A stretch of DNA of 64,000 bases from Schmidtea polychroa (taxonomy: Eukaryota): the NCBI GenBank assembly GCA_044892525.1, contig CM097885.1, positions 23,126,001-23,190,000 of the forward strand, in the 5' to 3' direction. The notes under the pieces were generated by a model that had not been told where the DNA came from, did no database searches, and was given only the letters and a program-made list of their open reading frames with translations. The position numbers and the translations under genes were made by a program. Position 1 is the first letter of the stretch. Each line of letters starts with the position of its first letter. This document shows positions 18,701 through 49,056 of the stretch, one piece after another.

Positions 18701-19885
18701 CTTTAGCATCATGTATGATTATAAAGCAATAAAATCATGAACAAATAAATAAATATAAAAATTCTTACCCGGCAACCATATCATCTGGCATCCAAGTATG
18801 ATGTCTCCTCCTTCTCAAGCTGCGTACTCAAACATCACTTTTATAACCATCTCATCAATTATGCTCATATTCTCCAAAGATCTAAAAAATCTTCGACATT
18901 GCCTAGATACATTCTACAAAATTTCCTCGTGACATATCTCTGCTGACCACATCATACTCGGATCTTCCAGAGGATACAGCTGCCGGCACCATGAAGAAAA
19001 GATAATTGTCATTTAAATAAAATTTATTCTATGAAATGAGTTTTGTTTTTCATTTTAACCATCAAATTAGCAAACATAAATAATTAATAAACCAAAATAA
19101 GTCACCATACCTAGAGCTTCGAAAAATTGGAACGAATTGAATTTAAAACTGATTTCGTAATAAACTGGTCACTAGTCGTTCGGTAACTTCCTGTAAATGT
19201 AAGTTCTGGAATCTCTGAAGTGATGCTTGTGAGTATGGTTCTGTGGAATATCTGTGATCGGTAATCTGTAATCTGTAATCGTGAAAAATCAAAGTGGGTT
19301 AACTTCTTCTTAAAAATTTTACCTGTAATCGTGAAAAATCAAAGTGGGTGTCTTCTAATTTTTCACGTTACATATATAGTATTTTTCGTCCAATCAGGAC
19401 GCAGCTTGTTTGTGATTTTCTATTTATTATTATTTTTTTATGTTTTTATTATAATGTATTGGGTTTTAATAACTTAACTTATTTCTTATTATTATTTTAT
19501 TTATTTTTCTTATTTTTCTCTTATTTTCTGTGGACTTATTGTTATTTGAATGTAATATAATTTTTTGTTTTAATTAAACTTAGAAATGGTTTTATTTTTT
19601 ATTTATTTCTTTAATTTTCCCGTTTATTTGTTTCACTTTTTTGTTCATTCTATTTTTATTTCATCCGCTGTGTGTCTTAAATCGTTTTATTTCTAAATCT
19701 TAGGGGTTTATTAGGTTTTATTTAATTAGGTTACTTATTCTTATTCTTTTGTTAGTATTTTACTGTTCCTTCCTATTTACTAATGAGATATGATGGTAAT
19801 TTATATATTTCTTATTTTCATTTATTTTTCGAGGTTTACCTTTCTATTCGTTCCAGTTTTCTCCGCTCTGAAATTTAGCCCAACA
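15762..19885 (-). repeat. 3' LTR of giant element (4,124 bp)
   Basis: Collinear with 33699-37822 at offset 17937; by eye ~7 substitutions and two 1-nt indels. Confidence 0.96.
16293..17053 (-). pseudogene. 3'-LTR copy of the LTR-encoded 253-aa ORF, split by a 1-nt deletion near 16889
   Basis: CTTACTCGC here versus CTTACTCCGC in the 5' LTR; this gives the two ORF-track pieces 16871-17053 and 16293-16826. The lesion may be real or a sequencing error. Confidence 0.85.
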
Positions 19886-24347: not shown

Positions 24348-24435
24348 TTCTATAATTATACATATACATATATTCGTTACTGGTACAGTTTCGTATTTTT
24401 ATTTACAGTTATTTACATTTTGTTTTAGGTTATAT

Positions 24436-24961: not shown

Positions 24962-27900
24962 CTATATACGTGAGTTTGGAGGTCGCTGAGCATTCCAGGC
25001 CTCCACCCACTGTTCCTGCTTGATATTATTTGGTCTTTTTACCCGATGCTGAAAATTTCTGATTCTGGTCATTTCCAGTTCTCCGCGATGCCGTCTATCT
25101 TTGATTATTTTTATTGTTCCCCCCGTTATAATTAAAAATGCCCCTGTTATTATTATTCCGCTGATCCACATCATCTGTTTTACGCTTATAATTTCCGATT
25201 TTTCCTTGTTCGTTATTGTTGATATCGTCTCTGTACTTTTTGGATTACCGCTTTTACTATTTCCTTTTATCATCCCTCGTATCCTTGCTACCTCCTCGTT
25301 CATACCTTCCTTTGCAATCTTTTGTATTTTTTCCATCTCCTCCTCGGATACATAATTGTCCTGATATTTCTCACTGGTTTTCTTGCGCTTTCTTTCCTCA
25401 TCTTTTTCATCATTGATTTTTCTTTTCTTCCCTCTTTTCCCCGGGTATCGTCGACATTCTCTTTCTGGACAGTTTCTCAGGATACAGACCGTATATTCCT
25501 TTGGTGGTTGTTGTTGCGTTACATATTGTAGACAGTTTTCTCCTGGTCCTAGCCTTGAAATACACACTTTGTGCTCTTTTCTTGGTTGAAGCTGTGTTAT
25601 CACTATTTCACCTCCTTTACTCAGGTGTACCTCTTTCCATTTGACTTTTGTTATCTTCTTCCCGTTTCGATGTTGGTACGCTTCTTGTATTCCCACTTCC
25701 GTTATTGGTTCTGCATCTTCATTTTTTAACACTAGTCTCTGATAAGCTCTAGACATACATCTTCCTAATATACACCTTTCTTTTAAATCCCATTCTTCTT
25801 TTAGATCCCATTGTTGCTCTTGTACTTGCTTTTTCTTTTCTTGTTTTAGTTCTTCCTCTTTGTTGTCCTTATTTTCCGTTTCTTTGGCTTCTTTTATCGT
25901 TCTCATTCCTCCCTGGGCTGTTATCATTTCCACCATTGTTAATACGAGTATCATTATCATCATATTTGTCTCCATTTCTTTGTTGGTAAAAAGTAGGCAT
26001 ACCCTCTGTTTTCCAATATTCGTCTTTTCTTCTTGCTTCATTCGGTTTCCCGGGTTATCCTCTTCCTTTTTCGTACTTGCGTTGTTATTTTCTTGATTAT
26101 TCTCCTCTGGTTTCTCGTTCTCTTTATTCCCGTTTCGACTTTTCTCATTATTATCGTCGTCTTTATCGTCTTTATCTTTATCGTCTTTATCTCCCCCGCT
26201 GTCGTTTAAAATGTCGTCCTCGACATTTATATCGTTCAACAATCTGCGATATGCTGTTAGCACTCTATTTCTTGCTAATTTTGCTTCGAATTCGAACTCT
26301 TTTCTGCCTGTTGCTGCATGTCTCTTTCTATTCCATTCTTTTACCAGTTCTCTCAATTGTATCCGACGATGTTTTCCGATTCGCTTTTGTTCGTTTTGAC
26401 TTTGCGTGAATTTGAGGTCTTCCCTGTTTAATACGATCATTATGATTTTCGGAGTGCCTCCTTTTGCTAATGTATTCTTAACCATTGCATTTTCTCCGTT
26501 TTCGTAGAACTCATTTATATTTATTGCATATTTATTGCTTTGTGGTATTTTCCATGTTAACAGTAACTTCATGGCTTCCAAATTTTTCCGTATCGTATTC
26601 CATTGGAACTGTGACGTGTTTTTACAGATATTTTCTACCTCAGTTCTTATAGCATTCTTACAAATGAATCTAATCATTTCCAAGTTTGGTTGTGTTGTTG
26701 CCCAATCCATGGTAGAATTCCCTTCGTTTGATATTTCGTCAAGCCTTGATCCTGATTGATGTAGTATATGTAATGTTTTCGGGTGTATATTTGTTATTGC
26801 TGCATACATCATTGCTGTTTCTCCTTGTTCATTTTTTGCATTAGATTCTTCTCCTAAGTCTCTAAGAATTCTTATGATGGTTATCGCTCTGTTTTCCTTT
26901 GCTGCTAGTATTGCTTGTTGTAATGGTGTTCTTGAATCTTTTGTTGGTATGGTGAACGCTAGTGGTATGAATGTTTTTATTTTACCTATGTCTAAATTTG
27001 TAGTTTGATCTCTTGCGTAGGTGTGTACTGTTTTTATTATTTTTGCCAGTATCGCTTCATCAGATAAATCTAGCATTTCTTCAAAGAACACCTCTTTGGC
27101 TTTGCGTATTATTATCTCTTGGTCTGAGTTTATTATCCTGGCTTTACCTGTCGTTGTTATATCAGTTATTATTTGATCGACTTGTTCCTCAGACTCTCTT
27201 GTTTTTACTTTCTTTATTTTTAACTTTTTCTTGTTTGAACTGTTAATGCGTTCCTCCGCCGTTAGAACTTGAATAATACTGAGGTAAGTTTCTCGAATGT
27301 TATTCATATTTTCCATCATATATAAAACACTCACGGTTTCCCAATATTTTACTTGTACTTTATCGGTGAATTGCGATATGGATTTTTCAAAATTAGTAAT
27401 TCGCTTTCTGATCAGGTGTTCGTCTTTATGGTTTGAGAGTTTTATACCTCGCTGTAATAGTTGATTTGGGATTTCAAATAGGTGATGTCCTCTCATTGCT
27501 TCTCTCATCAAGGTGTTTTCTCCTTTGGTAAATGTTTCGTTTATGTCTACCATATAATCGTTTTTCATCGGGTTTCTCCACGAAATTAGTACACTAGTAA
27601 TTGATATTAATTTCCCTTTGATAGCGGTTAATAGCCCGTCGTACATGTTTCCTATTTCTCTGTTATCCTCGTATGACAATAGGTCTACTAAGGTTATGAA
27701 TGCTTCGGTGCTTTTTCCTTCGATTGCATGATGTAGTGCATTTTTCTGATCGTGGTCTTGTGTGGTTATCTTTGATCCGGTTTCTAGTAATGCTATTATG
27801 ATATCCTTAGTTTTATCTCGATTTGCTGCTATCATTAGTGGAGTATAACCTTGATTGTTTTCTTGATCTGTCGAAATGTTACAATCGCGGAATGCTTCAA

Positions 27901-30900
27901 TTGTTTCTAGTATTTGTTCATTATTACCCACCTTTAAAAGCTTGTGCAGTGGTGTATCTCCGTAGTGGTCTGTGATCGTGAATAATATAGGCCATTGGCT
28001 TTTAACTACCCTGAGCAATGGGTGTGTTCTTTCTCGATTTGCATAGTTTTCTATCATTGTTAGCAGACCGCCCAATATCTCAAAATCTAATCTATCTTTT
28101 GCCCATCCGGGTATTTTAGTTTTTACCTCTTTCATGATTTTCTCGGCTTCTGATGGTTGTAGTCCCAATCGATTGCTTGTTGGTTCGTTTATCTGTTGTA
28201 ACATATTTATTCTATATGTTTGTGATCTTGTTGTTAATGTACGTCCTTCCGGCTGACTGGTGGCTGTTTTCGGTATTGGCTTACATCGCGCCACATTTAC
28301 ATATATTGGCCTTGTAAAGGGATTGTTTACCAATCGTACTCTCACATTGGTTTCTCCGACGAATAGAATCTCATACGGACCTTTGCCGTTTCGTTGCAAT
28401 TTCTTGGTGGTTCCTGGGATCAATTCTGGCGTTTCAATCATCACCCAATCACCGGTTTGAAATGTATGTTGTTTAACGTTTTTCTTTCTATCATGCAGAT
28501 CTTTGTAACTTTCCTGATAAAACTTTATATTCAACCCTGCAGTTTCCCAGATTTCCTGCATTCTTTCCTTGAACTTGGTTACATAATCATCTATTTCCAT
28601 ATATTGAGATATGGGTGGCTGATACTCCAAGTCCATTGGAATATTACATTCTCTGCCGTACATCAACTTGAACGGACTCATCTTTGTGGACGCGTGAATT
28701 GACATTCTGTAAGCCATTAAACATAATTTTATATACTCATCCCAATCCCGTTGATGACGATCGACATAATTTGATAACATTTGAATCAATGTTCCATTGA
28801 ATCTTTCTGTCATACCATTTGTTTGTGGATGATATGGTGATGTTCTTAATTTTGCAATCTTGAAGTAATTGGTTACTTCGCTCATTATTTCACTCATGAA
28901 ATTTGTTCCTTGATCGGTCAGTATTTGTTTCGGCGTTCCATATCGACAACATATTTCCTCTACTAATAGTTTTGCTATTGTTTTGGCTTTCTGATCTGCC
29001 ATGGCGAACGCTTCGGGGAATTTCGTCAAATAATCTGTGATCACCAATATATATATATTCCCTCTATCTGATTCTGGTAGTGGACCGACTACGTCCATAG
29101 ATATCATTGTCATTGGTTCTGCTGGTACTGGCATTGGTTTTAATGGTACCTTCCATTTTGTTCCCGTGTTCTTTCTGGTTGCGCAAGTTATGCAATTTTT
29201 TACCCATTCCGTTACGTCTTCAGTCAATGTAGGCCAAAAATACTTTTGTTTCATTCGTGCTAACGTCTTTTTTGATGACATATGTCCTCCGAGTCTTCCG
29301 TCATGGTATTGTGTTAGCAAATCTTTACGTCTATTCTCTGGAATACACATTAGTCTTTTATCACCATCCATTATCAATAACCAATCCTTTTCTATTATAT
29401 ATCGATGTCGATGTTTATCCATATGCTCTTTCAGTTTTTGATCTTTCTCATATACCTCTGCTTTCCCTGTTTTCACATATTCAATGATTTGCTTCAACTC
29501 TGCATCCTCTTGTTGGTCTTTTCGTAATTGGCAAAAATCTAAATCTTCCGCTACCATCAGACATATCCGTTGCATTTCGTGATCTACTAAATCTGGAAAG
29601 ATAAATCTTGACATACAATCTGCATTTGCATTTGCTCTTCCTGCTTTGAACTTTATGAACGGTGAATATTCTTGTAACTGCATTGCCCATCGCATTAATC
29701 TGCTTGAAGCTTCTTTGTGCTGTCCGAGCCATACTAATGGTTGATGATCAGTGGTTATGCATATTTCGTGACCCCACAACAAATATCGAAAATGCTTAAT
29801 CGCTTGTATTATTGGTAGCGCTTCTCTCTCTGTTACTGAATAGTTTTTCTCATGCTTTTTAAACGTTCTGCTGTAATAGCCGATTACTCTTTCTTTTCCT
29901 TCCTCATCTAGTTGTCCCAATATTGCTCCGGCTGCATATCCACTTGCATCTGTGGCTAATAAAAACGGTTTCTTGAAATCCGGATGTACTAGTATTGGGG
30001 CTTCAATTAATTTATCTCGCAATGTTTCAAAGGCTTTTTGCTGTTCTGCTCCCCAGATAAATGAAATGTCTTTTTTCACTAATTCCTGGATTGGTTTCGC
30101 AATACTTGCATAATTTTTAATGAATTTCCGATAATATCGGCATAATCCGAGGAATTCTTGAACTTGGGTGACAGTTTTCGGTGCTGGACAGGTTTTTATT
30201 TTTTCTATATTTCTTGGATCGGGTTCTTTGCCTTTTGCTGACACTATGTGTCCTAAAAACGTAACTTTCTCTTTTGCCCAATCACATTTTGATGGTTTGA
30301 ATTTCAACTTCCATTGTCGCAATCGAATGAACACGTTTCTGATATCTTCCAAATGTTGTTCGAATGTAGCTGAATATATTAATAAATCATCAATATATAC
30401 CATGCACTGCTTGATCCCGTGCGTGACAAAATTCATGCACCTCTGAAATGATGCTGGGGCATTGGTCAGTCCAAATGGCATTTTCCTGAATTGATACAGA
30501 TCTCGACCCAATGTGAAGGCTGTTTTCTCTTTGTCCTCCTCCTTGACTTTGATCTGCCAATATCCGCTCTTTAGATCTAAAGACGTAAAATATGCGGCCC
30601 CCTGTAGCATAAGCAACATCTCATTGATGTCTGGTAGTGGGTATGTATCTCTTTTCGTTACTGCATTTAGCTTCCGATAATCGATGCAAAATCTCTGGGT
30701 ACCGTCGTTTTTCTTCACCATGACTACCGGAAATTGCCATGGTGAACAACTTGGTTCGATCACTTTTGCATCCAACATCTTTTGTACTTCTGCTTCCGCT
30801 ATCTCTTTTTGTTTTTCCGCTAGTTTGTATGGGCGTAATGCAATCGGGGTTTCGTCTATTAAGCGTATTGCGTGTAATGTGACATCGCATGCTCCCAAAT

Positions 30901-31072
30901 CTAAATCCGAAATAGCGAATATATCTTTATATTCTATTAATAATTGTTGGAGTTTTCCCCTTTCATTCTCTGTTAGCAAGGTACTATCAATTATCCATAA
31001 TTCGTCATCTGTGGTTGATTCGTTCGTGGCTTTTGGTAACTCGATATCCATCATGGGTGTTAATCTACCCAA
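24962..31072 (-). CDS. pol: 2036-aa polyprotein: RT - RNase H - integrase - ankyrin repeats - internal hydrophobic segment - FN3-like domain - C-terminal transmembrane helix
   Basis: RT: RFCIDYRKLN, LDLKSGYWQI, MPFGLTNAP, YIDD (30386-30397). RNase H: TDASG, YYSR, TDHQPL. Integrase: HHCC, DVV/TDQG/TERF, GPY. Ankyrin: GDTPLH, GYTPLMIAA, KNALHHAI, RTPLQQAI, GETAMMYAA. FN3-like: ITQLQPRKEHKVCI. TM: MMWISGIIITGAFLIITGGTIKII. The ORF-track start is a TTG, and the frame continues upstream past one TAA at 31175-31177. Confidence 0.95.
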   Translation of the reverse strand: MGRLTPMMDIELPKATNESTTDDELWIIDSTLLTENERGKLQQLLIEYKDIFAISDLDLGACDVTLHAIRLIDETPIALRPYKLAEKQKEIAEAEVQKMLDAKVIEPSCSPWQFPVVMVKKNDGTQRFCIDYRKLNAVTKRDTYPLPDINEMLLMLQGAAYFTSLDLKSGYWQIKVKEEDKEKTAFTLGRDLYQFRKMPFGLTNAPASFQRCMNFVTHGIKQCMVYIDDLLIYSATFEQHLEDIRNVFIRLRQWKLKFKPSKCDWAKEKVTFLGHIVSAKGKEPDPRNIEKIKTCPAPKTVTQVQEFLGLCRYYRKFIKNYASIAKPIQELVKKDISFIWGAEQQKAFETLRDKLIEAPILVHPDFKKPFLLATDASGYAAGAILGQLDEEGKERVIGYYSRTFKKHEKNYSVTEREALPIIQAIKHFRYLLWGHEICITTDHQPLVWLGQHKEASSRLMRWAMQLQEYSPFIKFKAGRANANADCMSRFIFPDLVDHEMQRICLMVAEDLDFCQLRKDQQEDAELKQIIEYVKTGKAEVYEKDQKLKEHMDKHRHRYIIEKDWLLIMDGDKRLMCIPENRRKDLLTQYHDGRLGGHMSSKKTLARMKQKYFWPTLTEDVTEWVKNCITCATRKNTGTKWKVPLKPMPVPAEPMTMISMDVVGPLPESDRGNIYILVITDYLTKFPEAFAMADQKAKTIAKLLVEEICCRYGTPKQILTDQGTNFMSEIMSEVTNYFKIAKLRTSPYHPQTNGMTERFNGTLIQMLSNYVDRHQRDWDEYIKLCLMAYRMSIHASTKMSPFKLMYGRECNIPMDLEYQPPISQYMEIDDYVTKFKERMQEIWETAGLNIKFYQESYKDLHDRKKNVKQHTFQTGDWVMIETPELIPGTTKKLQRNGKGPYEILFVGETNVRVRLVNNPFTRPIYVNVARCKPIPKTATSQPEGRTLTTRSQTYRINMLQQINEPTSNRLGLQPSEAEKIMKEVKTKIPGWAKDRLDFEILGGLLTMIENYANRERTHPLLRVVKSQWPILFTITDHYGDTPLHKLLKVGNNEQILETIEAFRDCNISTDQENNQGYTPLMIAANRDKTKDIIIALLETGSKITTQDHDQKNALHHAIEGKSTEAFITLVDLLSYEDNREIGNMYDGLLTAIKGKLISITSVLISWRNPMKNDYMVDINETFTKGENTLMREAMRGHHLFEIPNQLLQRGIKLSNHKDEHLIRKRITNFEKSISQFTDKVQVKYWETVSVLYMMENMNNIRETYLSIIQVLTAEERINSSNKKKLKIKKVKTRESEEQVDQIITDITTTGKARIINSDQEIIIRKAKEVFFEEMLDLSDEAILAKIIKTVHTYARDQTTNLDIGKIKTFIPLAFTIPTKDSRTPLQQAILAAKENRAITIIRILRDLGEESNAKNEQGETAMMYAAITNIHPKTLHILHQSGSRLDEISNEGNSTMDWATTQPNLEMIRFICKNAIRTEVENICKNTSQFQWNTIRKNLEAMKLLLTWKIPQSNKYAININEFYENGENAMVKNTLAKGGTPKIIMIVLNREDLKFTQSQNEQKRIGKHRRIQLRELVKEWNRKRHAATGRKEFEFEAKLARNRVLTAYRRLLNDINVEDDILNDSGGDKDDKDKDDKDDDNNEKSRNGNKENEKPEENNQENNNASTKKEEDNPGNRMKQEEKTNIGKQRVCLLFTNKEMETNMMIMILVLTMVEMITAQGGMRTIKEAKETENKDNKEEELKQEKKKQVQEQQWDLKEEWDLKERCILGRCMSRAYQRLVLKNEDAEPITEVGIQEAYQHRNGKKITKVKWKEVHLSKGGEIVITQLQPRKEHKVCISRLGPGENCLQYVTQQQPPKEYTVCILRNCPERECRRYPGKRGKKRKINDEKDEERKRKKTSEKYQDNYVSEEEMEKIQKIAKEGMNEEVARIRGMIKGNSKSGNPKSTETISTITNKEKSEIISVKQMMWISGIIITGAFLIITGGTIKIIKDRRHRGELEMTRIRNFQHRVKRPNNIKQEQWVEAWNAQRPPNSRI

Positions 31073-31540
31073 TCGTTCATTTTCATATATGATTTTATCT
31101 TCTTCCTCGAAATTCGTGATGTTGATTGGTATTTCTCCTTCTTCATTTATCGTTATTATTTCTCGTGCTAATGGTTATTCTCGTCTTTTTTCGAATGATT
31201 TACTTGGTTCAAAGATAGCTTCTCCTTCCATTCCCCATACAATTCTTCGTGGAATATAATTACCCATCAACCCATAGTTTTCGTCGATTTTAAATTATCT
31301 ATTTGGGGTAGTAACAATTATCTATATGGTCGTATAAATTATCTATAGTTATTACTTATAATATCGATAGGTCGTTGTCGGTTGCTGCTTATTACCCCCC
31401 TTATTTCCTTAATCCTTTTACGCGGTTCCGCTATTTTACTTAATCTTTCGTCTCTGTTTCCCCTTACTCGGTTCTAATCTGAACCAAAAGTCAAACTCGT
31501 TTAACCGGTTTAAACCACAAAAATCTGTAGAACTCCGTCT

Positions 31541-33691: not shown

Positions 33692-34229
33692 AAAATCATG
33701 TTGGCGTATGTGGGGAAAAGAAAATATACATGCATATCATACACATCAAGCATCATGATTCCGCTCAGGCCATTCCCGCACACACTCCAGATGATCATTC
33801 ACAAATTCCCACGTATGAGCCCGTGGTGATGTTCCACGTTGGTGCTGCTCACACGGGTTGGAAAAAGTCAGCAGGTGAGCCCCTGTCTTAGGACTACTCC
33901 TAACCCTTTCTCGGTTCGGGTTCCATGGCGCCCTAGAAGGTCTTACCCGGTTCTTCGCACAAAAATTCAGTCCGACCCTGGTCCAAGGGGACGACATTTA
34001 AGCCTCTACTACGCTTTCAGGATCCTGCTCTTCCGCAATTCAACCATAGCAATGCATACATTCAATTAGCACAATCAAAGAAAATAGAACAGTTGTATTA
34101 TATCGGAACATTAAGATACATCCATCATTATGTAAATAAATATAAAACAGTAAAGATTAGGCACAAGATAACGTCAATTTTTCAAGTTTATTCGTAATAG
34201 CAGAGAATCGAGACCCGAGAAGAAATTTA

Positions 34230-34991
34230 CTACGAGAATGCTTCTCCTTCTGCAAGCATCTCGTCGATGTCAACCGGCAATCGTTGGTTGGAAAGGTACT
34301 TAATGCCTTCTGCCGGAACGATGCGAAAGATTTCCTTTGTGGGAATTGAGTGACTAGACGATATCTCTTTTATGGTGGATTTGGCTGCAGATAGTGACGC
34401 TTCGAGTGCAGCCATTGCATCTCGGCGTTTCTGATTTTTCTCGGCTCGGGTTGGCCGTTTTCGTTTGCGAGATGGCGGAGGGTTGTCCGTGTTCGAGGTG
34501 ACGACGGGAGCCACTAGGATTGGAGCTAAGATGGGATCAGTAGGTCCACCCACCAAAGGTTGATAACCAGATAATGTTGGAGCCGGGACGGGTGGTAGAT
34601 ATGAACCATGTCCTTGGCAGTTTGTGGTGGTCGATTGAGATACCTGATGATGAAGTGGGAAGACGTTGGTATTCTCCAAGACGGGGAATTCCCGTACCCG
34701 CTTGGCCAGTTCCGCCTCCGTATAAACCTTGTGGAGGCCTTCGGACTGGGCTTTAAAAGTCAATCGTTGATTTCGGCTCTCCTCTAGGAGGCTATCTCTG
34801 CGGTGTTCTAGTCGGAGAATCTTACTCCGCTCCTCCTTAATTTGTGGCGGGGAGAACCACGTACCCTCATAGAGATCGATTCTCTTCTTCAATGCCCCGA
34901 TGTATAGGTGAAGTTGTGCTATGTCGGCATTTTTATCCGCACACGAGAAGCACGGTCGAAGTTCCTTAGTGTTGCTGGAAGATGTCGTCAT
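34230..34991 (-). CDS. LTR-encoded 253-aa protein (CxxC plus coiled coil, Pro-rich linker, basic RKRKRPTRAEKNQKRR segment)
   Basis: Intact ORF; homologues at 47747-48508 and 43159-~43913, with mainly synonymous divergence. Confidence 0.85.
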   Translation of the reverse strand: MTTSSSNTKELRPCFSCADKNADIAQLHLYIGALKKRIDLYEGTWFSPPQIKEERSKILRLEHRRDSLLEESRNQRLTFKAQSEGLHKVYTEAELAKRVREFPVLENTNVFPLHHQVSQSTTTNCQGHGSYLPPVPAPTLSGYQPLVGGPTDPILAPILVAPVVTSNTDNPPPSRKRKRPTRAEKNQKRRDAMAALEASLSAAKSTIKEISSSHSIPTKEIFRIVPAEGIKYLSNQRLPVDIDEMLAEGEAFS

Positions 34992-37299
34992 TCTAGAAAA
35001 TCAATCAGTTTTATATCGAGTCAGGACATTTATTTTCGAATGACACAGTCGAGTTTAGAACATAAGCTGGCCATCTTATCTATCATCTCACCCAATGACA
35101 ACCCACAGATCTCATCATCCGTTCTCATTCACTGGCATTCCACTACAAACATTCAAATTCACTCATACAATCGTTTACGAAAAAGGGAACGGGAATTTGA
35201 TTAAGAAACGCCTCTGATCTAGGTCCACTTCCTTATCATATCGTTATTCTCTAGTTTTCTCATTACTGTCTCAGCTTTCTATCGATGTAATTATACCTAA
35301 TGACTTTAAAACGAGACCAAAATCCCCGACAACTTATGGCCAATTATATGTTAAACTACTCTAGGGGAATTATAATAAGAAAATTTAGTTAGAAAACTGA
35401 ATATTAAATTAAAATTTCCAGTGATTTAAATTATACGCGGAATTCGTCGTCATGGAGACATTTATTTAGTTGTACATTCTGATTGGATAGCTAGAGGTGT
35501 CAATCTTCCGATCGCAATTATAATTGTGCATTAGTTGTTATTTTTCGAGCAACTGTCTGTACTATTGGAAAAGATTATTGCTTGTCTAGTAAATTGGAGA
35601 AAAATCTAATTCCTCACCCTAGTCTGTTGAAAATTTATTTCTGAAGAAAATCCATGTATTCACGTGATCATTACATCACCAGCATTTCCTACCAAGCAGT
35701 AGATTCATTTGTACACCGCATTACATGAGAGTGACAGAAGTGTGTGTATGTACTATGACAGAATAGAACGGATTACATAATCGGCTTTCCGACAAGAAGC
35801 AGTAGACAAATTGCGAATCCGATTTATCAGCGCAAGCAACCGACGATGTAGCAGAGTGCGGAGTAAGTTGACTTTGTTATCAAATTTCATTTCATGATGT
35901 TGACTCAGGATAATGATTATTAGCTGGTTCACTCGACTATTCCTACTCACAGAGCGATATAGCATCAATTTAAGTTAGCATTATCAGATAACCCTGTTGG
36001 CTGACGGTAAACTGGCTATTGCAAATCAATTGAATACGGTTATCGTTGACGATAATTTCCCTCGACCTCATAGTAAGTATTCCTAAATTTTTATCGTACC
36101 GTGTTTACCTACCCGTCAAAGAGAGATTATTCCCTGCTGGTGTCTGTGGCTCAAGGACAGAAATTCGACATTCAAGAGTACATCGATGGTGGATGTAACT
36201 GCTAACAACCGGGTGACAGATTTAAAAGAAAAGAAAATCGAATTCCGCAGAAGGTGAAGACATTATACAATATCTCTGACTGATTCGTGAAATGGTGATG
36301 GTAATGCCTCCGAAAAATGCTCTAACGACGACCTGACTGTCATGAGGATCCTCTTTGCCTGCGTGGATTACCATTAGTTCAATGTCAATATCAAATGTCT
36401 ATCTCTGTCTAATTCTTGGCCATTTCTAAAATTCGTTGACACAAATTTTTTGGAATTTTCGCCATAAGAATGGAACTAATCGCAGAACGATCGCACTCGG
36501 TGGAAATAATTTTACTCCGCAAACGCATCTCAACTACTAAGTCTCTTCACCCCTCATGACACACCCAAGAAGGCATTCATTTCTGCCGCCATTCTTGCAC
36601 CGTCATGAGGGACCAATCGACTCATTCAACTTCAACATCTTTAGCATCATGTATGATTATAAAGCAATAAAATCATGAACAAATAAATAAATATAAAAAT
36701 TCTTACCCGGCAACCATATCATCTGGCATCCAAGTATGATGTCTCCCCTTCTCAAGCTGCGTACTCAATCATCACTTTTATAACCATCTCATCAATTATG
36801 CTCATATTCTCCAAAGATCTAAAAAATCTTCGACATTGCCTAGATACATTCTACAAAATTTCCTCGTGACATATCTCTGCTGACCACATCATACTCGGAT
36901 CTTCCAGAGGATACAGCTGCCGGCACCATGAAGAAAAGATAATTGTCATTTAAATAAAATTTATTCTATGAAATGAGTTTTGTTTTTCATTTTAACCATC
37001 AAATTAGCAAACATAAATAATTAATAAACCAAAATAAGTCACCATACCTAGAGCTTCGAAAAATTGGAACGAATTGAATTTAAAACTGATTTCGTAATAA
37101 ACTGGTCACTAGTCGTTCGGTAACTTCCTGTAAATGTAAGTTCTGGAATCTCTGAAGTGATGCTTGTGAGTATGGTTCTGTGGAATATCTGTGATCGGTA
37201 ATCTGTAATCTGTAATCGTGAAAAATCAAAGTGGGTTAACTTCTTCTTAAAAATTTTACCTGTAATCGTGAAAAATCAAAGTGGGTGTCTTCTAATTTT

Positions 37300-37335
37300 T
37301 CACGTTACATATATAGTATTTTTCGTCCAATCAGG
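37300..37335 (-). promoter_or_regulatory. LTR promoter: inverted CCAAT (CTGATTGG) plus TATA box ~500 nt inside the LTR
   Basis: The same ATTGG...TATATA arrangement occurs in the solo LTRs at ~45355-45379 and ~42106-42143. Confidence 0.6.
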
Positions 37336-40300
37336 ACGCAGCTTGTTTGTGATTTTCTATTTATTATTATTTTTTTATGTTTTTATTATAATGTATTGGG
37401 TTTTAATAACTTAACTTATTTCTTATTATTATTTTATTTATTTTTCTTATTTTTCTCTTATTTTCTGTGGACTTATTGTTATTTGAATGTAATATAATTT
37501 TTTGTTTTAATTAAACTTAGAAATGGTTTTATTTTTTATTTATTTCTTTAATTTTCCCGTTTATTTGTTTCACTTTTTTGTTCATTCTATTTTTATTTCA
37601 TCCGCTGTGTGTCTTAAATCGTTTTATTTCTAAATCTTAGGGGTTTATTAGGTTTTATTTAATTAGGTTACTTATTCTTATTCTTTTGTTAGTATTTTAC
37701 TGTTCCTTCCTATTTACTAATGAGATATGATGGTAATTTATATATTTCTTATTTTCATTTATTTTTCGAGGTTTACCTTTCTATTCGTTCCAGTTTTCTC
37801 CGCTCTGAAATTTAACCCAACACAAGTATGAGTCCGAAATTTTAAGTAACATTAAATAAATTTACAGAAAAGAAATTTCTGTACAAAATTCTTACGAAAT
37901 TCCAAACATATAAAACTTTCGATGTCTGAGAAAATGTCTGAGAAAACGAATAAAACCCTTATAGGTGAGATAAAGGGATTCTTCAAAAATCCAAAAAAAC
38001 AAGTTATTATACGAATCCGTAATCAAATAAATAAATTGAAAAACAAAATTTTGAATAAATTGAATAGCACAATAATTTCAATGTTGAAGTCTCTAAACTT
38101 GAGATTCCCAACGTTGCTGTGATAACTATATATAAGACAAAGTCTGGTTATCAAATATTTATTTAAAATTCAAATTTCTTACCAATACAATCCTTTTGAG
38201 ATTTGATTTCACTGGAAAATAATCGTGGGTGTTTAATATTATGTTAGTGCGTTATGTTGAGTACTACGGTTAAACTTTACTGTCGTGTCTTGTTAAAGAT
38301 TAAAAACTAATAAGGTTTTTAAATTATCTAGTGTTTCCAGGCCAAGGAAAACTAAAACCAAAACAACATAATAATAAAACATATTAAAACAACACAACAA
38401 CATAATAATTTTCTTTTTGAATATAGTTATATTTTTTCAGACTTTCTCCATATTCGTAAATATTTCGTGATGTACTATTTGTTATTGTGTAAGTTTTAAT
38501 TTAATATTCTTTTAACATTAACCTTCCTAATGTTTTCCTTTTCAAACCTTTTAATGATTTTAACTTAACCTGCTCTGAATCATTTAAAAATCTCTGAATT
38601 ATATAACAAATTCAAAAAAAGCTTATTATCATTTAACATTCTCAGTGTCATGGCAGTCATTTTTGACTGACAGTGCTTTGCCACTTGCACCACAACAGGT
38701 CTTTTACAGGTAAAAATGTAATTTTTTTGTTGTCAGACACATTTATCTACCAATACTCTGTGTCAGGTCGATTTGTCTAACAGAGACTTTTTAAAAAATA
38801 ATTTTGTGAGGTCAATGTGTCTGACAATAACATGTTAAAAAGGCTGTTTTTCTGTGGCACTGTATTAACAGTAACCATAGGCTCGTATAGATCTTTTTGC
38901 ATGAACTTAAATTGTAAAAAGGCTTTATTGGAGCAAAATTTTAAAATGAAATATACAGTTTGATGTTCATATAAATTAATAAAATTAAAAATTATTTCAC
39001 TATTTTTTGATGCATTGAAATTTAAAAAATAAAACTATTAAATATGCAATTAATATTATTAAAATTTAATCTCACACTAATAAACGAATAACCATTTCTT
39101 GTTTGATGTTGTTTAAACCGTCAATTTATTTAAATTTCCTTTTAAAATATTTTCTCAAACATGTCCTCCAACATTAATTCATGTAATTATTTGATTACTA
39201 ATAAGTAAAGTCTAGAAACGAAGAAAAAACAATATAAAGTAAAGTTTGATTATATTCAATTTTTTCTAAAAATTAAATTTAAGTTGACAAATGAATTCTG
39301 GCATTTATTAGAATATAGAAACTTGAATTAAAAACAGATTATTTCGTAGAAAATTTAGAGATGAGAAATTTGTAAGGTATATTAATATTTTAGTTTTGAT
39401 ACAAATATTGTAAGTTATTAATTCTTTGATAATGATAATTTGATTTATTATGAATACTCGGCTTCACATGTATATAACGTATATAGTTATTATTCATAAA
39501 TTTATTGTGATTAATGCTTTAATATTTACATTTTAATTTATGTTTTGATCTTGATATAATTAGGTTATTATCAGATTTTGAAGTTAAAGGAAAATGTACT
39601 AGCTGAACGTTGTGAGTTTTGGCTAATTGTATCGATTAGATCGTTACACCTATAACTGTTAGAATTCTATATAGTTAATAGATTAGAAAATTAGGCACAC
39701 TGGCGACCTTATGAAGTTGATAATTTCCCTACTACTATTATGCCTAAATATGGTCAGTTTATCCAACAAGATATTTTGTCCCCATATGGGTAATGGTCAC
39801 AAATTTACTGCTCGAAAAAATCTCTTGCCCCATTATTAACAAATTATTATTCCAACGAAACATATGTAGTTGCATGCTGACTGCAACATACATTTTCAAT
39901 ATGAAGACTTAATTATACCAAATAATCTTCAATGAAACTATAACGAGTTTTCAGTAATAAAATTTTGTGTACTATAAAAATCAACACCAAAATAAATGTT
40001 TTTTATATATTGATATCATATATTAGCCGCTTAATAAAACATCGTCGATATTGATGTTACCACAATCCATATTTACATTATTATTGTGATTGTTATCATC
40101 GGAATCATCTAAGTCCGGACTCATTCCGTCAAAAAGTGGACCAACTTCAAATACCTGGTCAATATCTGGAACATTGAGTCCTAAATAATAACCATATGCC
40201 AGACTGGTATTAGGCCCCACCCATAGCCGCTTGTCACTAAGCTATGAACGCTGGCCTACCACAAGCAAGCTATCCTTGTAATAGTGCCCAAATGTCAAAA

Positions 40301-41777
40301 GACAATGAAATCATAAATGAAGATTTATTAGTACAATCAAATGTAATTGGGGGTAACAATACCTGGCTCATCTTCCTAAATTTCACAACATTCCTTGAAG
40401 TCGCCTGGATTGGAGCTGCAACGCCGTCGCCCAGTGGGCCACCAGGAGATGCAAGGACGAAATGACGACAGATCACACTCGAACTCCCGCTACTGAGGAG
40501 GAACCAACGGGCTGGAGTAGATCTAGATCGCGAAGAGGACTCAAATGAAGAATTACAATTCAACTGGCGAGCTGAGACAAATAATTTTATTACAAAAAAG
40601 AATAAATATAAAAAATATTACCCTACAATTTCAGCAACAAATGGACAGATTTCGCCAGAGCTCGGACGGATCCGAGCATCAACAAGTAAATGCGGAATCA
40701 GATGAACCAAAAAGAGCAGTCGTGTAGTAGCCTCGACAAGGCTCTGAAAGCGGATAAATTACCATTTTTCGAGATTTTCAATCCCGAATCCAGAGAATTT
40801 AAATTTTTAACATTTCGGGAAATCCCGGATCTCGAGAATTTCTAGAGAAATCGGGGTTTTTTTAAATCAAATATTCATTGAAAAAATTATTTTTTAAAAA
40901 TTGAATGATAATGTTTTTGAAATAAATAAGTATACGATGTCTTTTCTTTGTTGGAAAAGTGATACATTGTGTGAAGTGTAACATCATTAGCTATAATCTC
41001 ATTTCAATTTTCATTTTGTGGTAAGCAATTGTGTTGTATTATCTGTTTGTATCGGAAATTTAAATTTATTTCTATTTAAAAACAAATTCAAATACATAAA
41101 TATTAAATTTTCATCATGAGTTCATAAAACGAATATGACCAAGTGTGGGAGCTTTTCAAAAGATTAGAAAATGATATTAATAACAAATCTAAAGAACATT
41201 ATAATAATTAAGCTGTCTTTATCTCAAATTTACAATAAAACAATATTCTAATGGTAAATATAATGAATCTAAAACAAATAATATCAATGACTCTGATAAT
41301 CTAATTGAGGATAATTTACTTGATTCTATTAAAAGAACAAACTATGCAACGTTCAATGACAGAATTGAATTAAAATCTGAATTAATTGCCAGAAAAAACT
41401 CTAAATTACAGGGTTATGCAAATCTTTATCCCCATTTATACAAATCTATATCCCCATTTATACAAATCTATATCCCCATTTATGCAAATCTATATCCCCA
41501 TTTATGCAAATCTATATGCCCATTTAATAAAAATATATAAATATGAGGGTTGAGAGATAAAAAATTAAAAACGCCATAAATATATTTCAAAGGATCATTT
41601 ATTATATAAATTGTTCCCTTCGTCTTGCGTTTTCAACCCATACCCTAATATTAGAGTAAAAACCACGACATTTTACTCCATAAGATATATCAGTTACCAT
41701 TATCTCATCTAAAGCATCTTCTATCCTTATGTTTGCTTTGGCAGCTTTCAATCCATGATATCGTTATTTTAACATCG

Positions 41778-44431
41778 TGTTGGGCTGAATCGAAAGCTTA
41801 AACGCAGAAAATAGGGAAAGTCAGAGAAATAAGATATTAAGATAAAATAAACAATTTAAAAAATAAAAAACAGAATAAGAAATAAGAAAAACAATAATTA
41901 AAAAGTAAGAATTAAAACAAAATAATAAAATAAGAAATTAAAATAGGAAAATAGATTAACAAACAAAATGATGAAAAATTTAATAAATATAGAGGAAGTT
42001 AAAGGAATAAATAAAAAATAATATAATAAAAATAAAAAAAGTAAGAAGAAATAATCGAAAATAGGAAAAAGAAATTATATTAATTAAAATAAGCGGTACT
42101 CAACTCTGATTGGTCCGCAGGCATGCAAAAAATACTATATAAACCGACATGAAATTCATTATATTCACTGTTTAACTTCAAACTGCTATAGGTAACGTTT
42201 AAAATTATTCACTGTTTAACTTCAAACTGCTATAGAACCTATTCGAAGGACACTATTCAATAGAAAATCACCGATATTCAAAGGAACAACAGGATCAAGG
42301 ACTAATAGATAAACTTTACCGGAACTCAAATCATAACTTTCGATTCAGCTCACGATCAATTTTCGAACCATAGTAAGAGAGATTTATTGGTTTTTAAGAT
42401 TTGTTAAGTAATTATGAAGTATTACCTAATGATTAAACAATTAATTTAACATTAAAATGTCTCTTCTTCATTTGATTTCCGTTTAAGTAATGTCTGAATG
42501 AAATTACATTTTGTAGATTTGGATTTAATTGGCATCAATAAATGATTTTCATTTTAGAAATTTTATGTTTTATATTTTTATGTTTTGTGATTCATGATAT
42601 GCACAAGTATGATATGACTTTAAAATCTTCGAGTAACGTGGAGTTGAGGAACTTCCTGTCATGGTATGAGGTGCCTTCGGGAGCTCAGCCGGTGGACATG
42701 GGGTTCTTCAATCACGCAGCTGTATTGGGCCGAAATGTGGGGGCTTCCTCACGGGTCCTATCGCTGAAGAATTAATAAGAGTATTTTAAATAATAACGAA
42801 AAAATGTTTTAAATATTAATTGAAGGTATTTTAAACAACACTCCAATGTAATATTTAATAATTAGGCATGTTTTGAAAACCAACAATTAAAGATAAATTT
42901 AGTAATTCATAAATCCTCTTAATTTTGAAGCTAGTAATTTATTTGCATTCGTCAATGCGGTGATATAGGTAGTAGAATTGGTATTGTCTTGGTAAATGAT
43001 TAGCCTAGTAGTAGTAATAAAATCGTTCTGGGAGGAGTTTTCTTTTCCCGTCTGTCCTAATCGTCTTGTTGCCAGATATGCGATGGTGAACAAATACCGT
43101 ACTCAATCAACGATTTCTTAAATATAGTTATCTCAGTTTCTTTTTATAGCCATCTAACATGCTACCAACCGCCAAATCCGCTTTACGCCCATGGTTCTCC
43201 TGCGCGGACAAAAATGCGATTATAAGGAATCTGCAGGCCCAGATCGGGCGCTACAAAAAGAAAATAGATGAGTTGGATGGCACCTGGTTCAGACACGCTC
43301 AGATGAAGGAGACCCAAAAAAAGCTGTATCGCAGCGAACACTGTCGTGACGCTCTCATCTCGGAGAGTCGTTCACAAAGGAGCTTGATTAAAGAGCAGTC
43401 CGAGGCACTGCATAAAGTCTACCTACAGGCAGTCACCACGCGAAAGATCGTCCAGATCCCCATTAAAGAGGCCGATAATATCTTTCCGCCTCATCATAAC
43501 ACCTCAAATCCATCTCCGCCGCTCAAGAGGTCCTGTCGAGATTGCGTCGAAACAGAACTGTCGCCCAAGTGACCAGATGTCATCATCACGTGTACCAGCA
43601 AGGCATCAACTCCTAATACATCCACATCAACCACGCTTCAGCAAGCTGAAATTTTGGACAAACCTAAACGCAAACAACTATCTCGTGCAGAGCGTAAAAA
43701 GAGACAGCGCGAACGTACATTGAGCAGACAGAATAAGGCCTCAGCGGAAGATCCGACCCCTGAAGTACCAGTTCCGCGGTGATAGACTTGACCATCGGGG
43801 CCCCCGCGCGAATTATATCAGCCGCCGGTGTAGCCTGGGAGGAGAACGCCTCCGAGTTCTTTGATTTAGAAGAGTTGTTACTCGCCACGGAATGGAAGGA
43901 ATGAGGCCCCACGGTGAAGCGTTCTCGAAAATTCTATGAATTCATGTCATCCTGCATTGTCTCTTCTTTTCCTATGTAAATACTATGTCGTATTCTGTGT
44001 GGTTATTAAGACAATAAATTTCTATTTCTCTTTGGTATTCTTATATGTCTTTTGTAATGAATTAGTATAGATATTTAAATGTATAGAAGTACTCATTTTG
44101 GGGGAGTATCAGTCAAGTTTGCATTTGGTGTAAGACCCAGCGAGAGATCGGATCGCGTTGCTAGACGTAAGTCCTTCTATCGGCAGTCAGGTGTGGGAAG
44201 TCGAGGCCTCAGTAAGGAGTAGTTTAAAGGCAGAAGCTCACCTGCTTACTGGCGTCTCGCCTGCATAGTGCAGTACCAACGTGAAGCAATTCACGGGCAC
44301 TAATGTTGGAATGCAGATCGTGTGAGGTCCTACTCTGAGTTGACGAGGTGAGAGTTAGTAGATGTAGTCGGACAATCATCCCTTATGGTAGAGCCTTGAA
44401 TTAGCATAGTCAACCGAGTGGTACCCCAGCA
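41778..44431 (+). mobile_element. Solo LTR (2,654 bp) of a diverged relative of the giant element, inserted in the Tc1 transposase
   Basis: TGTTGGG...CCCAGCA termini with 4-bp TSD ATCG (41774-41777, 44432-44435); shares promoter layout, ORF and 3' motifs with the giant LTRs. Confidence 0.88.
43159..43913 (+). pseudogene. Diverged, frameshifted homologue of the LTR-encoded ORF
   Basis: LRPWFSCADKNAII...DELDGTWF...RDALISESRSQ...QSEALHKVY; after a shift, KPKRKQLSRAERKKRQR aligns to the basic segment. The 3' end is approximate. Confidence 0.75.
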
Positions 44432-44855
44432 ATCGAAAAAAAACTCTTCAATTGGGTTGAGCTCTGGTGAGTAAGGTATTAGAAATTTCACGGGATTTCG
44501 ATTTTCGGACAATAAATTCTGAACATATCTTGAATGATGAAACTTTGCATGGTCCATTACCAGAAATTTGATTGGGTTTTGTCGAAAGTAGGAAATTAGA
44601 TGTTCACGTATAAACTCGATAAATAGAGATTGGTTATATGAACCAGTTCGATATTGATAGGCAACTATACCATTTATTCCAATCACACACATTAAACTTC
44701 TATTCACATTTCTGTTAGCAGGAACTTGGATAAAAGCATTTGCGTTTATAGGAGAATACCCTTATGCCCTATGTTAGGAGGTTCCTATTATATTTGTGCG
44801 TATTATATGCCTTATATTATATGTATTATGCTTGTACTTATGTTCGTGAATGCTG

Positions 44856-47800
44856 TGTTGGGCTAAATTTTGAAGTGGAGAGAAAAACTGGGTTAAATCG
44901 GGAAGCGAACCTCGAAAAATAAACGAAATATAATAAAAGATAAATTACCATCAAACCTCAATAGTAAATAAGGAAACAATAAAATACCCATAAAAAGAAA
45001 TAAGAATAAGTAATAAATAAATAAAACCCCTAAGAATTAGAAAGAAAACAAAAGAGAAAGGATTTAAAGCACCCAGCGAGTAAAGTAAAAATAGAATAAG
45101 CGAAAAAGTGAGAAAAAATAAACGAGAAATTAAAGCAATAAATAAAAATATCTTTAAGCCTAATTAAAACAGAAAAATCATATGGCAATAAAGTAGCCAT
45201 AAAACAGCAAGAAAAAATAGGAGAAAAATGATAAAAATAAGAAAAATAAATAAAATAATAATAAGAAATAAGTTAAGTTATTAAAAGCTAATATATTATA
45301 ATAAAAACATAAAATAATAATAAATATTAAAAAATTACAACCTAACTGAGTCCTGATTGGACGAAAAATAGTATATAAGCAACGCGAAAATAAGAAGAAT
45401 ACCACTTTTTAATCCACGATTGCAGGTAAAATTTTTGAGTTATGAGATACCACTTTTTAATCCACGATTGCAGAACTTGACTTACGAATTATTACGGAGG
45501 ACTAATTTCAAAGACGACTAAATCGATTTTAGGAAGAAACTCAGTAAACTTATTCAAGAAAACCTTCACGTTAACCGATTAAATCCAGTTATTCCAAAAC
45601 TCGAAAGTATGTTAAGTTATTTATGGTTTAGTTTTATGATGAATATGATTGAATTTAATAGATATTTATGATTGACTTTAGTAAATTTTTGTAAATAACA
45701 AGGATAATTTCATTCAATAAATTTATTTGAAAACAGAAACTGCCCTTCTTCATGGTGCCGACGACTGTACCCTCTGGTGATTTCAAGTATGATGCCAATG
45801 GAGGAAGTAGCCACGAGGAATTTTCATAGCATGCCTCTAGGAGATGTTGCGAAGACATTGGAACTGGAAAAATGATAATAATCAATGAGATGTTCGCTAA
45901 TGCTCAGACTGAATATATGATTGGAAAAGGGAAAGCATCATACTTGGAGCCCAGATGATATGGTCGCCGGGTAATTTGATTTATTTATTTTGATCATTAT
46001 TTATTCTGTTATTATTATGATTTATATATGAATTTTTAATTGTTGAATGTGAAGGAGTTGATTGGTCCCTCATGACGGTGCAAGAATGGCGGCAGCAATG
46101 AATGCCTTCTTGGGTGAGTCATGAGGGGTGATGAGGCTCGGTAGACTAAAAATCCCGTTGAGGAGTAAAATTTTCCTTCACCCAGCGCGATCGTTAGGAG
46201 GATATTCTATCATTTTGTTCAGTTATATCGAGATTTCTGATATTCGTATAAGTAGCTTGAACTCCCAACAGGGGTTAATCCGGATTTAGATCGACATGAG
46301 TGTTTAGATAGATCCAATAAAACTTCACATAGATTGAGGAAAATCAGCCTGTCGATCAGAGCAGCTAAGAAAGAATCTTGTCGACCACCGTTTGCGATTA
46401 AATCCAACGGTTTTTCTGCAGCGTAATAAATTCACGAGGTATCGTCTGATTTGGATCGCCAGAACGTTAGCGATGAAATCCGTAGGGAATGTACTTTTAG
46501 GCTTGATTGTTGACGCTCGGGTTACTGATAAGCATCGTTTTCTGCAAATAAAGCATGAGAATTATCAGGATACTTAAGATAGAGATGGGAGAAACCACTG
46601 ACAGGAATATCGGCTACTCGTTGATTGACTCGATGAATCGCCCGTGGAGTTATCTGATAATTGTTAAAGGGACTACAGTCGGATTGTAGCAAATCAAATT
46701 GAATGACCGACGAAATCAGATAGCGCTGATAATAAGTTCATTTCCACGATGATTTGTCTAGTTGGCGCGTGGGTAGACATTGTCTTGAGTTGGCCGTAGG
46801 ATAAGTAAAATAGATTGAAAATTCCAGCTCATTCATTACTCACCGAATTATCACATACTGTCTAAGGCTGATGCTCGTGGAATTTTTAGTAGCAATTCAA
46901 CTTTATTGCGTCTCGTAACCACACACACTTGCGCACTCCAGTAGGATAGCAACGCACTCTAGATAGTGGAATTTTCTGTGACGTCATAATTATATCATAG
47001 CCTATCCGAAATTTCCTGAGATAGTAGGATGGTGTGTATGGACAACAGCACGGATCGTTTTTACCGTGATTTGATACGACATCGAATTGTCTCGATTATT
47101 ATAGAGAAACAACAACATATGAAAGCACACGGCTAAGCTAATCTAACGGAACATACTAGCTCGTACAATAAAAATTAAACATAACATACGCACACCTGAG
47201 GTAGTGTCACCATGACAACGAAATAGCGCGTTATACAAATAATTAGTATTTTAATTCATGCTGCATTTTTGGGATAATCTAATTTTAAATTTTTTATCGT
47301 TGATTAGAGTTTATAACAGACAAGTAAAAACAAATGTCACCAAATCTAGACTCACCAGCACTTGTCTTACACAAATCGACGAACCACAATACTAAGAAGT
47401 GGATTTCTAATTTTTGTAGAATGATGAAATGAGATAGAAGTAACAATCAACAATCACCAAAAAGGGGAATAGATGGGACCCATCCAATCTGAAATTAACG
47501 TTTATTTTTATTAAATAAATTAATTCGGTACAATTTTCCCCGTTTTCTTTCCGTAATTCATATAAATTAGTTGGAGAAATGGTGTATGTTTGCCAATGAA
47601 TGATTGTGAATCGAAAGGGATGGTGAGAGCTGTGAGTTGTCAGTGTACGGAATGATTGATAGAACCCCAAACCTAAGTTCTAGAATCGACTATATCGTAC
47701 TAGTAGATGTTTTTCCAAGTAACCTAACAAAATATTGACCTTCTAGATGACTACATCGTCCAACAAAGCCAAAGAACTTCGCCCGTGTTTCTCTTGTGCC

Positions 47801-49056
47801 GACAAGAACGCGGACATCGCTCAATTGCACTTGTACATCGGGGCCCTCAAGAAGAGGATCGATCTTTACGACGGTACGTGGTTCTCCTCGCCACAAATGA
47901 AGGAGGAAAGGGCGAAGATCCTCAGATTAGAACACTGTAGGGACAGCCTACTGGAGGAGAGCCGCTGCCAAAGGCTCACAATCAAGGCCCAGTCAGAAGC
48001 CCTCCATAAAGTCTATACGGAGGCAGAACTAGCCAAGCGAGTGCGCGAATTTCCTGTCGCCGACAGAACAAACGTTTTCCCTCTCCACCATCAGTCTTCT
48101 ACAACTTCTACCACAACTTGTCAAGGGCACGGTTCACATCTACCGCCCATCTCAGCCCCAGTGCTGTCAGGATATCTACCAATGAAAGGTAATCCATCTG
48201 ACCCAATTCTGGCCCCGATTCTCGTGGCACCTACCGTCACCACGGATGTAGGGGAAAATCCGCCACCCCGCAAACGCAAACACCCGACCAAAGCCGAGAA
48301 GAATGAAAAATGGAGAAATGCAATAAAGGCGCTCGAAGCATCATTGTCTGCAGCGCAGTCAAAAATAACCGAAATATCATCCACCCATTCGATTCCCTCG
48401 AAGGAAGTTTTCCGTATTGTCCCGGCCAACGGCATCAGATTTATATCGGATTGTCGATTGCCTGTCGACATCGATGAGATAATCGCCGATGGGGAAAACT
48501 TTGCCTAGAAACGATCTACGTTCGACCTCGATTTCTCTTCGAGTTGTGATTCGACTTGCAAACGTTGATAATGCTGCATGTCCAAATTGATCGAATGTTG
48601 TTAAATCTATCATTGGTAACGATGTAATCGCTTTTGTGTTTTCGGTGTCAATATATTTTTCTGTTCGATTTTGTCTTGTGAAGTTTCCGTATGTTTGATT
48701 TTGAAATCAGAATAAACGAAATAATGCTGTGAGATGAATGTAATCAGGATGAAGGTCGTTCCCTTGGACCAGGATCGGACCGTAGCTGATGTATGAATAG
48801 GGGTAAGTCCTTCTAAGGCGCCATGGAACCTGAACCGCGAGTGGGTTATCAGTAGTCCTAAGGTAGGGGCTCACCTGTTAGCCAACTCCAACCCGTGTGG
48901 GCACTACCAACGTGGAACATCGCCACGGGCTCACATGAGGGAATATTCATGAAGTCAATTGGAGTATGATCGGGGAAGATCTAAGTTGAATACGCGTGAT
49001 GGTACAACTGATGATGAATTTTATTTATATTTTTTTTCTCCCCTCATACACCAACA
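44856..49056 (+). mobile_element. Solo LTR (4,201 bp) of a sister family of the giant element
   Basis: TGTTGGG...CCAACA termini with 4-bp TSD GCTG (44852-44855, 49057-49060); removing it restores the CsRn1 LTR as seen at 53720-53730. Confidence 0.93.
47747..48508 (+). CDS. Intact 253-aa LTR-encoded protein (sister-family copy)
   Basis: Same length and collinear with 34230-34991; preceded directly by CTAAC...TTCTAG. Confidence 0.85.
   Translation: MTTSSNKAKELRPCFSCADKNADIAQLHLYIGALKKRIDLYDGTWFSSPQMKEERAKILRLEHCRDSLLEESRCQRLTIKAQSEALHKVYTEAELAKRVREFPVADRTNVFPLHHQSSTTSTTTCQGHGSHLPPISAPVLSGYLPMKGNPSDPILAPILVAPTVTTDVGENPPPRKRKHPTKAEKNEKWRNAIKALEASLSAAQSKITEISSTHSIPSKEVFRIVPANGIRFISDCRLPVDIDEIIADGENFA

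Follow-up and report, generated by a model that had tools for sequence, protein, structure and literature searches.

Long terminal repeats (LTRs) of Burro-like retrotransposons in Schmidtea polychroa carry a short predicted intron that ends in a 24-30-nt copy of the predicted first exon, and with a probability of roughly three in four this intron is spliced from the 5′ end of the genomic RNA and then rebuilt in DNA via the repeat in the unspliced 3′ end. The proposed cycle has five steps: (i) transcription would begin about 30 nt behind the TATA box, at the first copy of the repeat (X1); (ii) X1 would be spliced to the AG of the second copy (X2), with the branch motif inside X2 being used; (iii) the 3′ copy of R has to keep the intron, perhaps, as a guess, with only the cap-proximal donor active; (iv) strong-stop cDNA would reach the cap, often gain a C opposite it, and pair with the X2-exon 2 stretch of the 3′ end, where its extension would copy the spacer, X1, and U3; and (v) both new LTRs would bear the intron, with X2 equal to X1 and the bases 5′ of X2 variable, which is the outcome visible in the DNA. 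In this scheme X2 is copied from X1, the master, so a functional 3′ splice site would have to be encoded within exon 1 itself. With less assurance, we lean towards a general LTR design in which a spliceosomal intron is removed in every cycle, regenerated by strand transfer, templated at its 3′ splice site by exon 1, and needed for spread.

Features of the window (the whole analysed stretch of 64,000 nucleotides; position 1 is its first letter)
Feature	Position	Strand	Remarks
TGATTGG, conserved promoter motif	45354..45360	+	reverse CCAAT-like
TATA box of solo LTR	45372..45378	+	conserved in 461 matches
X1, predicted first exon and R start	45399..45425	+	YTRAY branch-like motif inside; CAG end; predicted start site
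Predicted 48-nt intron	45426..45473	+	GTAAAA donor, 21-nt spacer, X2; putatively spliced
G just 5′ of X2	45446	+	X1 has A there; candidate cap copy
X2, exact X1 copy	45447..45473	+	predicted branch site, acceptor, and strong-stop cDNA landing site
Predicted exon 2	45474..45606	+	ends at second donor-like site, GTATG at 45607
Overlapping AATAAA/TTTATT	45716..45727	+	candidate poly(A) signal on both strands; ~110 nt behind second donor-like site
Same AATAAA/TTTATT overlap	36954-36965, 19017-19028	-	
X1, second LTR family, 30 nt	42162..42191	+	TATA at 42136
Predicted 44-nt intron, second LTR family	42192..42235	+	X2 = 42206-42235
X1 in 5′ LTR of 22-kb element, 27 nt	37260..37286	-	
Predicted 50-nt intron, 5′ LTR	37210..37259	-	X2 = 37210-37236
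X1 in 3′ LTR of 22-kb element, 27 nt	19323..19349	-	
Predicted 50-nt intron, 3′ LTR	19273..19322	-	X2 = 19273-19299
Solo LTR of Burro-like element, 4.2 kb	44856..49056	+	TSD GCTG; sits within another element's LTR
LTR fragment holding the 42162 X copy	~41777-42770	+	extent = match to relatives
5′ LTR of 22-kb element, 4.12 kb	33699..37822	-	TSD CAAG; PBS-like TGGGGGC stretch next
3′ LTR of 22-kb element	15762..19885	-	99.7% identity with its 5′ LTR
22-kb element, whole	15762-37822	-	TSD CAAG
2070-aa frame of 22-kb element	24962..31174	-	RT, RNase H, integrase, ankyrin repeats
RING/TRAF and MATH frames of 22-kb element	22959-24398	-	downstream of 2070-aa frame

The unit runs in the order TATA box, X1, GTAA and spacer, and X2 with its YAG end, and the X pairs of the window lie about 550 nt into LTRs of 4.1-4.2 kb. 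Searched for exact repeats of at least 20 nt at a spacing of 35-79 nt, the whole window yields only these four X pairs outside tandem arrays, and GTAA directly follows the first copy in all four. The first-pass annotation had described identical pairs behind a TATA box, separated by GT and a spacer, and all four are found and are internally identical, including the unit it reported in the 5′ LTR of the 22-kb element. Its pair in the solo LTR is exactly as described (27 nt, with a 48-nt GT..AG segment), while for the pairs that it began at 42163 and, on the minus strand, at 19323, identity and segment length (44 and 50 nt) stand but X is one base longer in each (30 and 27 nt). The count of three LTR families does not survive, as the LTRs with the 45399 and 19323 copies are two subfamilies within a single group, 76% alike near the promoter.

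The 22-kb element places its domains in the order RT, RNase H, integrase that typifies Ty3/gypsy, and it has the structural marks of that group, namely two TG..CA LTRs, a TSD, and a PBS-like stretch. Burro/GYPSM1 elements of planarians are giant gypsy-like LTR elements with ankyrin, RING, and MATH/TRAF cargo (PMC6431247); as far as the accessible description goes, they share domain order and cargo with the 22-kb element, and multi-kb LTRs and many copies with the window elements in general. Their length criterion is >30 kb, whereas the window copy measures 22 kb and sibling LTR pairs lie mostly 26 kb apart. On domain order and the cargo description, the LTRs with the X1/X2 unit probably belong to Burro-like Ty3/gypsy elements. 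The accessible part of the Burro/GYPSM1 description mentions neither an LTR intron nor a repeated exon (PMC6431247). No Pfam match to gag, an env-like region, BIR, or BCL2 was obtained in the frames scanned (17 of 31, then more). A purine tract upstream of the 3′ LTR was not found at 19886-19905 or in any of the 3′ LTRs compared; in its place, a conserved GC-rich stretch ending GGAGTGATT precedes the 3′ LTRs (window 19886-19905), and TGATT also stands immediately behind the 5′ LTR.

The layout is widespread in the genome. Patterns that combine promoter and donor have 336 and 761 genomic matches, with 0 for the reversed controls, and a pattern for X without a following G has 53, a number that misses single copies with a G-starting exon 2 and counts in segmental duplicates. 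The first sample comprised 140 loci, 137 of them parsed, at 128 unique places; 96 were classed as double, by similarity and a GT/GC behind X1, and 32 were not. Without six partner LTRs and L098, which has no matching core, the doubles form a set of 89 insertions. Other samples consist of 60 loci of two young subfamilies and 50 loci around single copies. Because the first loci were classed by similarity, the fair test is a held-out sample of 70 loci that were chosen by promoter and donor, with the repeat not required: an X copy is present in 64. The remaining six, read by eye, are three apparent single copies with a GTAAG-starting exon 2, two interrupted copies, and one with a truncated X2. One related LTR pair (L082, L083) has the same promoter motifs and lacks both the repeated X and AG|GT.

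The two X copies co-vary. In 73 of the 89 insertions X1 equals X2, and in the other 16 a single edit separates them, which bears out the co-variation across genomic LTRs predicted by the first-pass annotation; so does the presence of 30 different X among the identical pairs, X varying by family yet matching within the LTR. Mean X1-X2 distance is 0.15 edits within an LTR vs 5.5 between LTRs in group A (65 insertions) and 0.26 vs 3.7 in group B (23). Among new loci of the held-out sample, the last 20 nt are identical in 53 of 62, with 52 different X. Where the two LTRs of one element could be compared by eye, the junction variant was common to both in 16 of 16 pairs, and it therefore arises before integration. 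Two pairs show a one-base lag between X1 and X2 in both LTRs, which fits an origin of X1 and X2 from opposite RNA ends. The first-pass annotation had put the start of transcription at X and had minus-strand transfer rebuild the intron and homogenise the X copies; the DNA marks support this reading indirectly, with the refinement that exchange between the copies should be one-way, X1 overwriting X2.

The upstream edge of the copied part is tied to the promoter. The part shared by X1 and X2 starts at TATA+30 in 48 of the 89 insertions (35 of 71 distinct spacers), within TATA+27..+31 in 61 of the 71, and within TATA+28..+31 in 41 of 55 held-out LTRs. This distribution is close to chance extension from a fixed start at +30, with some excess at +27. 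Just 5′ of the shared part, X2 is preceded by G in 28 of 71 distinct spacers, against 10.9 expected from spacer composition; the excess is present where the edge lies at +30 (19/35 vs 6.9) and absent where it lies further upstream (4/27 vs 2.7). The G is seen in 10 of 19 spacer clusters, within which related spacers share states, and recurs in the held-out set (24/55 vs 7.1, about three times over). A reverse transcriptase that copies the cap would leave such a G.

The same junction is also a site of variation. In a set of 20 close copies, one of them a segmental duplicate, 7 forms occur in the 6 nt 5′ of X2, against 2 before X1, and 7 is the highest value of 1394 windows, tied with one other site. 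Smaller close groups have 4 forms before X2 vs 1 before X1 (9 copies) and 2 vs 1 (6 copies), and 15 of 17 multi-member spacer clusters vary at this junction. In standard minus-strand transfer, the junction coincides with the first LTR base to be transcribed (PMC6894440), and a mismatch there, at the last U3 base, is reported for Ty1 and M-MLV (PMC5399748). Errors would thus be expected before X1; they lie before X2, so the cDNA end would land on X2, and because X2 follows X1, the RNA 5′ end would most simply read cap-X1-exon 2. Together, the edge, the G, and the variable junction look like the traces that a landing cap-ended cDNA would leave.

These marks also bear on the best-placed rival, in which a real intron is spliced only in protein-making mRNAs while the packaged genome stays mostly unspliced, and X1 and X2 are kept alike by the occasional spliced template or by slippage with duplication and deletion. 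Three-unit copies do exist (L129, L325; decayed in L044 and L109), one junction form is common to many copies (6/9 in one subfamily), and the intron of the second LTR has to be retained in genomes anyway, all of which accords with such a history. An unspliced genome would, however, put the junction errors before X1, slippage neither pins the edge to TATA+30 nor adds a G, and X-only differences amount to at most one edit across the 89 insertions (L098 left out; L080 differs more). We consider this account unlikely. As a separate observation, the last 6-12 nt of X are tandemly piled behind X2 in L002, L013, L106, L329, L330, L333, and at window 19266-19272; in L330, the tandem X-tail copy begins directly after an AG inside X.

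The segment between X1 and exon 2 resembles a host intron. Its predicted length is 43-52 nt in 88 of 89 insertions and 44-54 nt in all 55 held-out LTRs. The donor has A at +3 in 68/68 and at +4 in 66/68, positions left unforced by the parser, which forces the GT itself, and the segment ends in YAG in 88 of 89. Of 40 X, 32 have YTRAY 14-18 nt 5′ of the AG, whereas shuffles have it in 22%; the motif is weaker in the held-out set (34/55). Two Hsp70-family genes of the same genome have 46-nt GT-AG introns, and the short-intron peak of planarians is given as 45-85 bp in the accessible text of PMC13594981. Length, donor, and branch motif fit a host-type, U2-type-like intron that would be removed from the RNA.

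Of 25 forms of block lost directly behind X2 (e.g., 9 nt in L170), 17 end in AG, where 7.7% is expected per position, and 7 of 18 indels of at least 3 nt fall at the X2-exon 2 junction, only 2 of these 7 being AG-to-AG in a stricter alignment. Such losses fit splicing to a downstream acceptor, with the result written back into DNA; they can also come from slippage at short homologies, the forms not being independent. The counterpart, a shifted (+4) donor written back into DNA, is unsupported in the held-out set (5/8 vs 21/47, p 0.45), and the reading of AATTTTTG in the spacer as an Sm site was dropped, as positions past +9 vary. GT directly follows X2 in 17 of 55 distinct held-out LTRs (L268-L337), 8 of them with GTAA, and the spliced junction could thereby form a new donor. 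The Hsp70-family genes of L258-L262 and L252/L253 form near-identical pairs 28-32 kb apart, one group with the 46-nt intron; no LTR promoter motif was found beside these pairs.

The intron-like features weigh against a reading without splicing, in which reverse transcriptase skips from X2 to X1 on the unspliced 5′ end and the shortened cDNA lands on X2. Direct-repeat deletion by retroviral reverse transcriptase is established, repeat-mediated loss does happen here (L231/L232), and skipping predicts the same co-variation, cap-G, and junction marks. It nevertheless leaves unexplained why the repeat always ends YAG|GTA, why length has a floor of 43-44 nt, and why a branch motif is present, and it must be near-complete at the 5′ end yet rare (2/24 pairs) on the same repeat at the 3′ end. 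This makes it improbable, more so than splicing confined to mRNAs.

Among LTR pairs with one X tail and a separation of 17-28 kb, the intron is in both LTRs in 21 (by eye), in neither in 2 (L249/L250 and L221/L222), and in the 5′ LTR only in 1 (L231/L232). The intron is lost in roughly 1 of 12 replications, and intronless copies do not spread: on a tree of U3 plus X1 with 133 rows, enriched for single copies and with a few rows misclassed, the 44 single rows need 35 changes vs 37.4 for shuffled labels, and the largest single-copy clade has at most 3 rows. Frequent loss without intronless families points to selection for the intron, part of the loss being post-insertion, and the splice is likely useful to the element. 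Single-X copies were rejected as proof of splicing, given that in L231/L232 the unit has disappeared from just one of the two LTRs.

Complete X units that derive from other subfamilies persist as relics in exon 2 of L005, L009, L012, L027, L078, and L100 and begin at the predicted start site, in L005, L009, and L027 with ACCAC. Relic spliced leaders are known from recycled cDNAs of dinoflagellates, where rounds of reverse transcription leave stacked, decaying copies of the 5′ mini-exon; there, host trans-splicing adds one common leader, whereas each planarian subfamily has its own X in cis. The relics raise the idea that X1 is a spliced-leader-like mini-exon trans-added from other LTR transcripts. 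Yet X2 matches its own X1 over 30 + 52 types though many subfamilies coexist, and the relics are explained by transfer between co-packaged RNAs, leaving trans-addition very improbable; identity with an SL RNA was rejected outright, as 41700-46000 has no Rfam family match and X is subfamily-specific. A test for mosaics yielded one clear group, in which U3, X, and spacer are kept together while exon 2 differs by 44%, plus one pair, and the reverse class held no informative pair. A chance repeat or assembly artefact, to which an AT-rich, repeat-rich sequence might lend itself, is refuted by hundreds of matches against 0 in controls, by different X in the same layout, and by the agreement of both LTRs.

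The splice-and-rebuild reading has two needs: R must extend beyond X2, and the 3′ copy must escape splicing. AATAAA is kept about 240 nt behind X2 in many subfamilies, and this candidate poly(A) signal would set the R end about 330-350 nt behind the start, which would meet the first need. For the second, the foamy virus offers a precedent: its major splice donor lies in R, is active at the 5′ end but shut off at the 3′ end, and suppresses polyadenylation (PMC3694450). As in planarian LTRs, that donor is present in both LTRs upstream of the poly(A) signal; the abstract, for its part, mentions neither a complete intron in R nor a repeated exon (PMC3694450). Folding of 71 planarian LTRs gave no sign of comparable masking of the donor in its 3′ context (0.43 vs 0.41 unpaired), and the acceptor is slightly less open (0.58 vs 0.53), a difference too small to use. 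Contigs from 4 of 12 runs, compared with part of the 5′ LTR, contain no intron-spanning joint among the 15 of 52 joints listed. Run X5, which may be RNA, has three contigs that terminate in an A-run at 36958 on the antisense strand of the element, a hint of polyadenylated antisense RNA.

An intron should be erased when an element passes through spliced RNA, and for this reason retroelements are taken to contain few introns or to package their RNA unspliced. If the proposed cycle is true, the element gains the benefits of a cap-proximal splice yet keeps its intron for ever, and each genomic copy preserves a record of its parent RNA, namely of the start site, the cap, and the acceptor chosen. 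The genome would then hold hundreds of natural records of single strand-transfer events, including cap copying and mis-landing. The cycle raises the question of how, of two identical sequences, the 5′ one is spliced while the 3′ one is not; candidate roles of the splice are export, stability, escape from silencing, and a common leader for accessory genes. The layout offers sharp, cheap tests within a model animal group.

In retroviruses and LTR retrotransposons, strong-stop cDNA is transferred from R at the 5′ end to R at the 3′ end (PMC5399748, PMC6894440), and judged by the accessible parts of these sources the planarian cycle would share this transfer. It would differ in that (i) the two R copies are unlike, one spliced and one unspliced, (ii) the cDNA lands internally, on a second copy of the R start, and (iii) the error site lies 45-50 nt inside the transcribed region, unlike the canonical U3-R-U5 layout with its junction at the first transcribed base. 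The disputed lariat model of Cheng and Menees for Ty1, with a 2′-5′ link between the RNA ends, likewise ties splicing-type chemistry to minus-strand transfer; as outlined in the accessible portion of PMC5399748, it involves no GT-AG intron and no sequence duplication. No description of the splice-and-rebuild mechanism was found in the literature searched, which spanned accessible parts of 10.1101/2022.12.06.519325, PMC5399748, PMC5371799, PMC6894440, and PMC12789967, among others.

The window holds further features of interest. Open frames of 200-256 aa lie inside the LTRs at 34230-35000 (-), 16293-16898 (-), and 47747-48508 (+); they have no Pfam match and share about 70% DNA identity between two subfamilies. 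Tandem arrays occupy 31809-32207 (79-nt units), 488-672 (16 nt), and 41414-41526 (22 nt), and nested DDE transposase fragments, together with other integrase and RT fragments, are found at 44330-44761, 55180-56344, 12295-13632, and 49925-52076.
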